NCBI GenBank assembly: GCA_964364285.1
Contig: CAYIKZ010000001.1
Location: forward strand, 17,237-81,236
From: an uncultured Candidatus Saccharibacteria bacterium
GTDB taxonomy: Bacteria > Patescibacteriota > Doudnabacteria > UBA920 > VMFF01
Direction of reading: 5' to 3'
DNA: 64,000 nucleotides
Shown here piece after piece: positions 60,591-61,451 of the stretch. Position 1 is the first letter of the stretch, and the number at the start of each line of letters is the position of its first letter. Both the position numbers and the translations under genes were made by a program. Below the pieces are notes generated by a model. It did not search any database. It had not been told where the DNA came from and was given only the letters and a program-made list of their open reading frames with translations.

Positions 60591-60619
60591 TTGACAAAAC
60601 AAGGATCGAAGGTTATGAT
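60591..60619 (+). promoter_or_regulatory. sigma70-like promoter at the left edge of island E
   Basis: TTGACA-17 bp-TATGAT. Predicted TSS about 60626, followed by a 120-nt leader. Confidence 0.55.
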
Positions 60620-60747
60620 GTGAAACTAACAAGTGGGCTACAAGTCTTAGTTACAAAGAAGTTTGTATCTCTGACTCTTAGCTCACCAACGAGCAGAGTA
60701 TCCTTCAGGGGATAGTATTATCACAATTTGCATGGAGGATGCTGACG

Positions 60748-61389
60748 ATGGATACTACATCGCTCACGTCCAATGGTCGACCCACTCGAGGCCAAATTCG
60801 TCGCGTGCGGAACTTGGCTTGGGAGGCAGTGGAAGAAACCTTGGAGTGCAAGTTCCCTTTCACGTACGGGCAACTCCAGGTAGTTCATACTGCCGGTGGC
60901 AAGTTTAAGGCGAAGTTCAGCGTTGCTTTTCGGGAGTTCGTCTTCGCCTTCGCTCTCAAGGAAGCCGGGTTCTTCACTACCGTTGCTGCTCAGAAGACTG
61001 GTCACGTTCCACCTGGCTGGACGGTGAAGAGTGATAGTCTTGAAGGCGAAATCAACCTCAACAATCTGGACTACTCTTCTTGCGCTTTGTGTGAAGGCGA
61101 CGAACTCGTCGACGGCGCGACAATGCTCGAGAGGGCAGGCGACGCTTACGGCAGTCTTGGCTTCGCGTCCGTCCTACTCGAGGCGCAAGGAGAAGGCAAG
61201 GAGATTTTCCCTGTCGAGTCGCGTGGCAAGCATTATTTCCTGATGCCACGTACGATTCTGCTCAACGAAAATGAGAAGCCATTCGTGGCTTGCTTCCTCT
61301 GGGGTGGTAAGGACTGGAATCTATACTACAGTCCGCTCAGCTCCGATTTCGGGGACAGCGATCGGTTTGTACGCCCTCGTCAGCACTAG
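60748..61389 (+). CDS. hypothetical protein (213 aa) encoded in GC-rich island E
   Basis: GGAGGA 8 nt upstream of the ATG. About 56% GC. Followed by terminator CCCCACACT...AGTGTGGGG. No recognisable family. Confidence 0.55.
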   Translation: MDTTSLTSNGRPTRGQIRRVRNLAWEAVEETLECKFPFTYGQLQVVHTAGGKFKAKFSVAFREFVFAFALKEAGFFTTVAAQKTGHVPPGWTVKSDSLEGEINLNNLDYSSCALCEGDELVDGATMLERAGDAYGSLGFASVLLEAQGEGKEIFPVESRGKHYFLMPRTILLNENEKPFVACFLWGGKDWNLYYSPLSSDFGDSDRFVRPRQH

Positions 61390-61451
61390 CTCACGGCCAT
61401 TGTGGCCTGCTTTGCCCCACACTTTGACTTCGGTCAGAGTGTGGGGTGCTG

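Follow-up and report, generated by a model that had tools for sequence, protein, structure and literature searches.

A stand-alone GC-rich gene unit of Patescibacteria is likely a formerly diversified DGR target

Bordetella phage BPP-1 Mtd, Treponema denticola TvpA, and Thermus TaqVP are structurally characterized variable proteins of diversity-generating retroelements (DGRs) with a C-type-lectin fold. The first survey of Patescibacteria/CPR cellular DGRs was reportedly that of Paul et al. in 2017. Phage 'morons' are genes that form units of their own with a promoter and a terminator and have an atypical composition. Roux et al. 2021 (PMC8144416) described a cellular DGR clade that is confined to Patescibacteria and has targets without recognizable domains, which probably contain novel C-Lec fold variants. 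DGRs can act on remote targets, and contig-based surveys miss remote or orphan ones (PMC8144416). In the BPP-1 DGR, efficient homing depends on a hairpin/cruciform beside the variable region (VR) and is sensitive to the structure of the stem and to the sequence of the loop (Guo et al. 2011, PMC3240598).

The locus described here, island E, is one of five GC-rich islands (about 2300-2790, 5930-6320, 36170-36950, 39175-39750, and 60590-61450) in a 64-kb stretch of Patescibacteria DNA, which we call the window. Island E shares its host phylum with the Patescibacteria/CPR 'DGR clade 2' (Roux et al. 2021, PMC8144416). As in that clade, the proteins are small and without a signal peptide, TM segment, or recognizable domain, the VR corresponds to the C-terminal ~40 codons, and relatives of the island E gene adjoin genes for the accessory protein Avd and a reverse transcriptase (RT), with mismatches between VR and template repeat (TR) at adenines only. 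Unlike that clade, the island E copy has no TR, Avd, or RT in the 64 kb, shows no adenine depletion, and has an eroded 3' boundary. It resembles the BPP-1 DGR in having a hairpin-forming inverted repeat 3' of the VR segment (PMC3240598). Like a phage moron, island E is a self-contained transcription unit whose composition differs from that of its neighbors. Unlike a moron, it resides on the chromosome among housekeeping genes, is stably syntenic in four genomes, and has no counterpart in the viral contigs searched.

Island E had been proposed to be a self-contained transcription unit with a promoter, a structured leader, an SD, a 213-aa ORF, and a terminator-like hairpin. Every part is present, and the promoter, the leader fold, and the 3' hairpin uphold the proposal. 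A sigma-70-type promoter (TTGACA-17-TATGAT; 11 of 12 consensus positions) is located at 60591..60619 on the plus strand. Promoter-like matches are not rarer than in shuffles (2 observed vs 1.6 expected). The position of the island E promoter is kept in three orthologous loci (L001, L005, and L025), and distant family members have analogous TTGACA/TATAAT promoters upstream. The Shine-Dalgarno sequence GGAGGA, read from the sequence, is at 60734..60739 (plus strand), 8 nt before the ATG at 60748. The ORF extends over 60748..61389 on the plus strand, and its stop codon is the TAG at 61387-61389. Another in-frame ATG, at 60739, overlaps with the SD. The 213-aa length of the homologues places the start at 60748 and not at 60739. 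The SD of island E is part of an SD/start motif common to the family loci, AGGAGGATG(A/C)NNNN(A/G)ATG, and this nucleotide motif is kept even where the proteins of the loci are 40-50% identical.

The ORF is 55% GC with a GC3 of 0.62, compared to 32-39% GC and a GC3 of 0.26-0.37 in host genes (GC3 from eight host genes). The composition of island E is non-native, and no housekeeping homologue with native codon usage was found. The shift in composition begins near 60700 and ends near 61500. Island E is flanked by a 99-aa gene on one side and a PMT_2 glycosyltransferase gene on the other. The stop of this convergent PMT_2-type gene is at 61452 and abuts the 3' hairpin. With its strong promoter, 5' stem-loop leader, consensus SD, and stable 3' hairpin, the unit should express a small protein.

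The minimum free energy (MFE) fold of the ~120-nt leader beats 200 of 200 shuffles (z -4.06). The long 5' leader hairpin (60633..60686, plus strand) has an outer stem, UGGGCU/AGCUCA, and a variable inner stem. This hairpin is kept in five leaders, from four orthologues and the island at 36135-36258; compensatory changes occur at 8 of the 27 pairs in their consensus fold, and this covariation substantiates the original prediction of a conserved leader hairpin. The leader core GGGCU...CUUAGCUCA..GAGCAGAGUA is common to island E and the island at 36135-36258. A small second leader hairpin, AUCCUUCAGGGGAU (60700..60713, plus strand), is present in the consensus structure of the orthologous leaders. 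In the single-sequence MFE fold of island E, an AUCCUUC arm pairs with the SD instead of forming this second hairpin. A riboswitch-like leader that sequesters the SD was rejected because the pairing occurs in the single-sequence fold only and is absent from the alignment fold. Rfam contains no match to the leader at the gathering threshold or at E<=10, and Rfam searches at gathering and permissive thresholds returned only a tRNA and noise. We infer that the 5' hairpin is an mRNA 5' stabilizer or a regulatory element.

The 213-aa protein had been described as having no assignable motif, and scans of Pfam, NCBIfam, PHROGs, and PADLOC agree in giving no match. A PDB sequence-profile search with the protein was also without a match. 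A word-indexed search identified 34 homologues that cover at least 50% of the query at 42-64% identity. All 34 are from Patescibacteria, Parcubacteria, or Doudnabacteria metagenome bins, and every one is labeled 'hypothetical'. A profile of 24 homologues retrieved 390 cluster representatives at E<=1e-3 and 102 at E<=1e-10, most of them 140-230 aa long. The hosts of the family are tiny groundwater bacteria (Patescibacteria), and no relative of the family was found in viral contigs. The conserved core is the C-terminal ~140 residues and contains LEGDINLxNLDYSSCPV, AYGSLGFA, GKEIFPVESRGKHYFIMPRT, and F.W...W.L.F....RFVRPRE. The N-terminal ~70 residues are of at least two unrelated types across the family alignment. 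The 'Cys pairs' (SCALCEGDE) that had been put forward as a motif are not conserved in the family; the first Cys (DYSSC) is common, and the second occurs only in the island E copy. The C-terminal WGGKDWNLYYSP falls in the segment that matches the DGR variable region of the relatives. The protein has no signal peptide or hydrophobic segment and so is predicted to be cytoplasmic. The dN/dS against the orthologue in the sister genome, H41, is 0.32, and the ORF body alone folds no better than shuffles (z -1.0). These data exclude a noncoding RNA and identify island E as a real protein gene. A distant family member, P0094 (L023 2666-4219), is 517 aa long and has four tandem copies of the C-terminal domain. 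The P0094 gene has a GC content of 0.57 compared to 0.49 in its neighbors and a long leader, and it lies between housekeeping genes without an RT nearby.

Structure prediction gave a confident AlphaFold2 model. Built with the family alignment (pLDDT 89.7), it has three N-terminal helices and an alpha/beta C-terminal domain. The N-terminal region (60787..60963, plus strand) is formed by model helices 17-36, 43-51, and 53-75 (216-aa numbering), and its type varies across the family. The conserved C-terminal alpha/beta domain (60970..61380, plus strand) may have a weakly C-type-lectin-like fold. Foldseek searches of the model against the PDB and BFVD returned nothing significant, and its likeness to C-type-lectin folds is weak. 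The modeled C-terminal domain is probably a divergent C-type-lectin-like fold, and the family protein may have a lectin-like binding function.

Relatives of the island E gene are linked to DGRs. The family gene of L024 (GCA_030689945.1) spans 6001-6627, and downstream of it come a bAvd gene (PF22296) and a gene for an RVT_1 reverse transcriptase. The VR is the last 123 nt (6499-6621) and is repeated 478 nt downstream as the TR (6977-7099). There are 21 mismatches between VR and TR, all at TR adenines and 0 elsewhere, a pattern that marks a canonical DGR with adenine-specific mutagenesis from TR to VR. Adenine-only VR/TR pairs are also found in L007 (0 non-A, 18 at A) and L008 (0 non-A, 19 at A). 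The pairs in L028, L030, L033, and L039 are near perfect, and those in L011, L013, L014, and L036 are looser. Searches by tblastn with the L024 RT and Avd located Avd and/or RT downstream of the family gene in ~15 distinct loci. In DGR-linked loci, Avd is on the opposite strand between the TR and the RT. The TR has AAC/AAT codons where the protein alignment varies. The island E protein aligns end to end with P0015 (L024), P0013 (L007), and P0026 (L008). The adenine-only VR/TR pairs and adjacent Avd/RT in relatives identify the family as a DGR variable protein, and the island E protein is a homologue of proteins diversified by Patescibacteria DGRs. This linkage fits the Patescibacteria clade of Roux et al. 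2021 (PMC8144416). The idea that the whole ORF is a VR was rejected; VR/TR homology in the linked loci covers the last 123 nt only, and the differences between orthologues are not restricted to adenines. Directly upstream of the DGR target gene in L024, 4461-5809 encodes AbiEii and a HicA/HicB toxin-antitoxin pair. Downstream of the 3' hairpin, the DGR-linked loci L011 (~4575-4600), L013 (~4585-4620), and L014 (~3080-3112) have another promoter, and the expected TR-bearing transcript of these loci begins with the conserved CAGATGGGATTTGTG.

The 3' hairpin of island E (61413..61448, plus strand) has a 16-bp stem, a UUCG loop, and the apex GAC-UUCG-GUC (z -5.8). The apex is invariant in 11 of 11 family loci, and five stem pairs have compensatory changes. 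The window contains a single copy of the 10-mer GACTTCGGTC (0.02 expected). Each family locus likewise has one copy, invariably directly 3' of the family gene. The 3' UTR is conserved in nucleotide sequence even between loci whose proteins share 40-50% identity. A weak U-tract follows the island E hairpin, and the hairpin probably terminates transcription. By analogy with BPP-1, it is possibly also a DGR target-recognition tag.

The segment of island E that aligns codon for codon with the L024 VR (6499-6621) is 61258..61380 on the plus strand. In DGR-linked genes, the A fraction in the VR is 0.05-0.12, and its ratio to the rest of the ORF is 0.2-0.5. The corresponding values are 0.07 and 0.29 for the H41 orthologue, 0.12 and 0.52 for L005, 0.17 and 0.78 for L025, and 0.21 and 0.99 for island E. 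L024, L007, and H41 have one and the same adenine-free 3' end, CGGTTCGTTCGTCCCCGC. Island E has CGGTTTGTACGCCCTCGT, with four substitutions that include a new A, and the family-invariant Trp is replaced. Six contigs represent two protein variants in the population, and no VR differences were found between these variants; their VRs are identical. Two more stand-alone family genes, L029 and L032, have strongly A-depleted VRs. The A-depleted VRs of H41, L029, and L032 suggest that trans-targeting of stand-alone copies occurs in the family.

Searches by tblastn with the L024 proteins found no RT or Avd in the 64-kb window, L001-L005, or L025. The three syntenic orthologues likewise lack a TR, Avd, and RT in the 3.5-10 kb covered per side. 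A scan of the window that allowed mismatches only at adenines found no TR partner for 61255-61386 or any 60-nt tile of the ORF. The best second match had at least 10 non-A mismatches per 60 nt; the positive control had 0. The window also lacks the TR consensus and the TR-RNA start motif. Three related genomes, H41 (L001-L004, L027), L005, and L025, share the gene order around island E, likewise with no DGR. A species-representative scan, to which a bare TR is invisible, detected a single family gene in each related genome and no further family locus. The flanks of the four syntenic genomes differ by 7-22%. Presence at the same site in all four shows that island E is not a recent insertion, and the island has stayed GC-rich at one chromosomal site during the divergence of the flanks. 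No integrase or transposase was found near island E, and no window-wide repeats link the GC-rich islands.

The island E ORF has diverged from its H41 orthologue far more than the surrounding sequence. The flanks are 93% identical over 9.3 kb, and the promoter and leader are 92% identical, compared to 64% nt and 56% aa identity for the ORF. The identity boundaries are sharp: at the start codon itself, identity drops from 92% to 58%, and at the 3' hairpin it recovers. Across the entire ORF, N-terminal half included, identity is 55-76%, compared to 93% for the flanks. The ORF has a dS of 1.13 and a dN of 0.365, compared to 0.12-0.44 and 0.006-0.02 in the flanking genes. The ORF tree is incongruent with the flanks: the H41 ORF is nearer to L025 and L005 (73-74% nt) than to the window (64%), whereas the flanks group the window with H41. 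DGR activity could account for the C-terminal divergence only, and the remainder must come from allele replacement, gene conversion, or a local rise in the substitution rate. The target gene is GC-rich in every host (0.48-0.63 vs 0.38-0.50 for the locus), and the GC content of Avd and RT is host-like or lower. Two features of these loci are puzzling: the whole target gene is GC-rich but Avd/RT are not, and the UTRs are more conserved than the coding sequence. Two other segments of the window, 8094-8193 (in a 690-aa ORF) and 10594-10693 (after tuf), are 78-82% identical to H41 against a background of ~98%. The H41 relative has a 399-aa gene without a Pfam match between SHMT and BacA (L015 1677-2876 vs L016) that is absent from the window-type genome.

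The explanation that we consider likely, with room for real doubt, is that island E is the stand-alone target-gene module of a Patescibacteria DGR, formerly diversified and probably no longer so. The protein has two domains, one helical at the N-terminus and a conserved alpha/beta one at the C-terminus; the last ~41 codons of the latter (61258-61380) encode the putative surface whose equivalent is hypermutated in relatives. In most family members, a TR ~360-490 nt downstream would be transcribed, and the adjacent RT/Avd would copy it into cDNA with errors specific to adenines. This cDNA would replace the VR up to the adenine-free 3' boundary, next to which lies the conserved hairpin. Adenine depletion and part of the 3' boundary are lost in island E, which makes it most likely a fixed-specificity, formerly diversified paralogue. 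The island E copy appears to have lost DGR activity, and the gene would now evolve by ordinary but very fast divergence and/or allele replacement. Some observations speak against this explanation. DGR activity accounts neither for the divergence of the whole ORF, N-terminal half included, nor for a GC-rich target gene beside Avd/RT that are not GC-rich. Only 64 kb are visible and DGRs can act remotely (PMC8144416), and the stand-alone L029, L032, and H41 genes have A-depleted VRs. A TR-Avd-RT cassette elsewhere might therefore still diversify 61258-61380 in trans via the 3' boundary and hairpin, which we regard as unlikely. The intact family-specific hairpin in island E would fit such a remote cassette, as would the interspersed VR differences between orthologues, a pattern typical of DGR variation. 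The A depletion of H41, L029, and L032 without a cis DGR points the same way, and contig-based surveys are known to miss remote targets (PMC8144416). However, the island E VR is not A-depleted (0.21, ratio 0.99), and its non-adenine positions, which homing would keep homogeneous, have drifted, including those in the A-free 3' end. The VR is the same in both population variants, and related genomes have no second family locus in a scan blind to a bare TR. The eroded signatures and the identical VRs make an orphan copy likelier than an active remote target.

The sharp boundaries of the divergent segment raise the idea of an allele-exchange cassette under diversifying or balancing selection, with no retroelement, that is swapped via the leader/SD and the 3' hairpin like bacteriocin-immunity or surface-antigen loci. 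We think this improbable as the full account. In its favor, identity falls from 92% to 58% at the start codon and recovers at the hairpin, the ORF dS of 1.13 exceeds the 0.12-0.44 of the flanking genes, the ORF tree is incongruent (window-H41 64%, H41-L025 74%), and SD and 3' UTR nucleotides are conserved across loci with 40-50% protein identity. Against it, no close donor allele was found (best 56% identity), and all four syntenic orthologues have one N-terminal type, which also fits vertical descent with acceleration. Allele exchange is compatible with a formerly diversified DGR target and may act on top of it. A recently acquired, 'moron-like' gene from a GC-rich donor, unrelated to DGRs, would explain the gene's own promoter and terminator, its GC3 of 0.62 compared to 0.26-0.37, and the lack of a family annotation. 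This origin is very improbable, and synteny together with the distribution of the family largely refutes it: four genomes whose flanks differ by 7-22% carry the gene at one site, all detected homologues are in Patescibacteria and none in viral contigs, and there is no ambiguity about the homology to DGR-linked genes. A GC-rich structured RNA with an incidental ORF would fit the fold of the complete transcript, which is better than the folds of shuffles (z -6.1). The excess structure sits in the UTR hairpins, however, and the ORF alone has a z of -1.0. Coding constraint (dN/dS 0.32 and invariant residues across hundreds of clusters), the confident protein fold, and the lack of an Rfam match refute such an RNA and leave it next to no probability.

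The DGR assignment provides an identity and a testable mechanism for a 'hypothetical' family that is outside all four profile libraries. It also indicates that Patescibacteria DGR targets occur as stand-alone, syntenically stable copies that range from apparently active (the A-depleted H41 VR) to decayed (island E). The VR-to-gene adenine ratio, the A-free 3' boundary, and the family-specific GAC-UUCG-GUC hairpin are three simple diagnostics for such copies.

The four other GC-rich islands of the window resemble island E in composition, have a GGAGGAT-type SD, and encode unrelated small proteins. Scans of three of the other island ORFs against Pfam, PADLOC, PHROGs, and NCBIfam gave no match. 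The five islands might form one class of portable, self-expressed accessory cassettes of Patescibacteria with interchangeable promoter, leader, SD, and hairpin modules, kept GC-rich in AT-rich hosts through continual recombination or a reverse-transcription route, with GAC-UUCG-GUC as the address tag for trans diversification by a single DGR; we hold this idea to be doubtful. Island A (2300-2791, minus strand) lies between an M50 peptidase gene and rpsL. Its ORF (2415-2759) has a GC3 of 0.68 and encodes a 114-aa protein without a family match. Island A is 89-92% identical to H41 compared to ~98% for its flanks, and the protein is 88.7% identical (aa). Island B (5932-6356, minus strand; ORF about 6066-6275) follows fusA and has a TTGACA promoter and a GGAGGAT SD. 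The island B protein is 98.6% identical (aa) in H41. In L021, the island B stretch is 50-55% identical and has a different 84-aa ORF, compared to 86-93% identity in the flanks. The 69-aa island B protein looks membrane-spanning, and a bidirectional hairpin at 6007-6061 is common to island B and fusA.

Island C (36135-36930, plus strand) lies between gpmI and recJ, and its ORF (36256-36846) encodes a 196-aa protein unrelated to that of island E. The island C leader has the core GGGCU...CUCUUAGCUCA..GAGCAGAGUAU and the long 5' hairpin in common with island E. The island C protein has only two homologues in the word-sharing search, one identical and the other 72% identical. It matches the N-terminal half of P0049 (E 5e-7), a 501-aa protein with an E-type C-terminal part. 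Remote homology of island C to the island E family is not supported (hhalign probability 0.5%). The P0049 gene (L026, 3.3-kb contig) has a DnaG zinc-ribbon gene on one side and a phage-integrase fragment on the other. Beyond the P0049 3' hairpin, the GGAGGGATGACGCC start motif appears a second time in truncated form, which hints at tandem cassettes or a mobile context. The remaining island (39175-39750, plus strand) has an ORF at 39278-39682 with a GC3 of 0.61 and the SD/start GGAGGATTGACAATG, like the E-family motif. This ORF encodes a 134-aa, Arg-rich protein without a family match, and a long, bidirectional-looking hairpin follows the gene.
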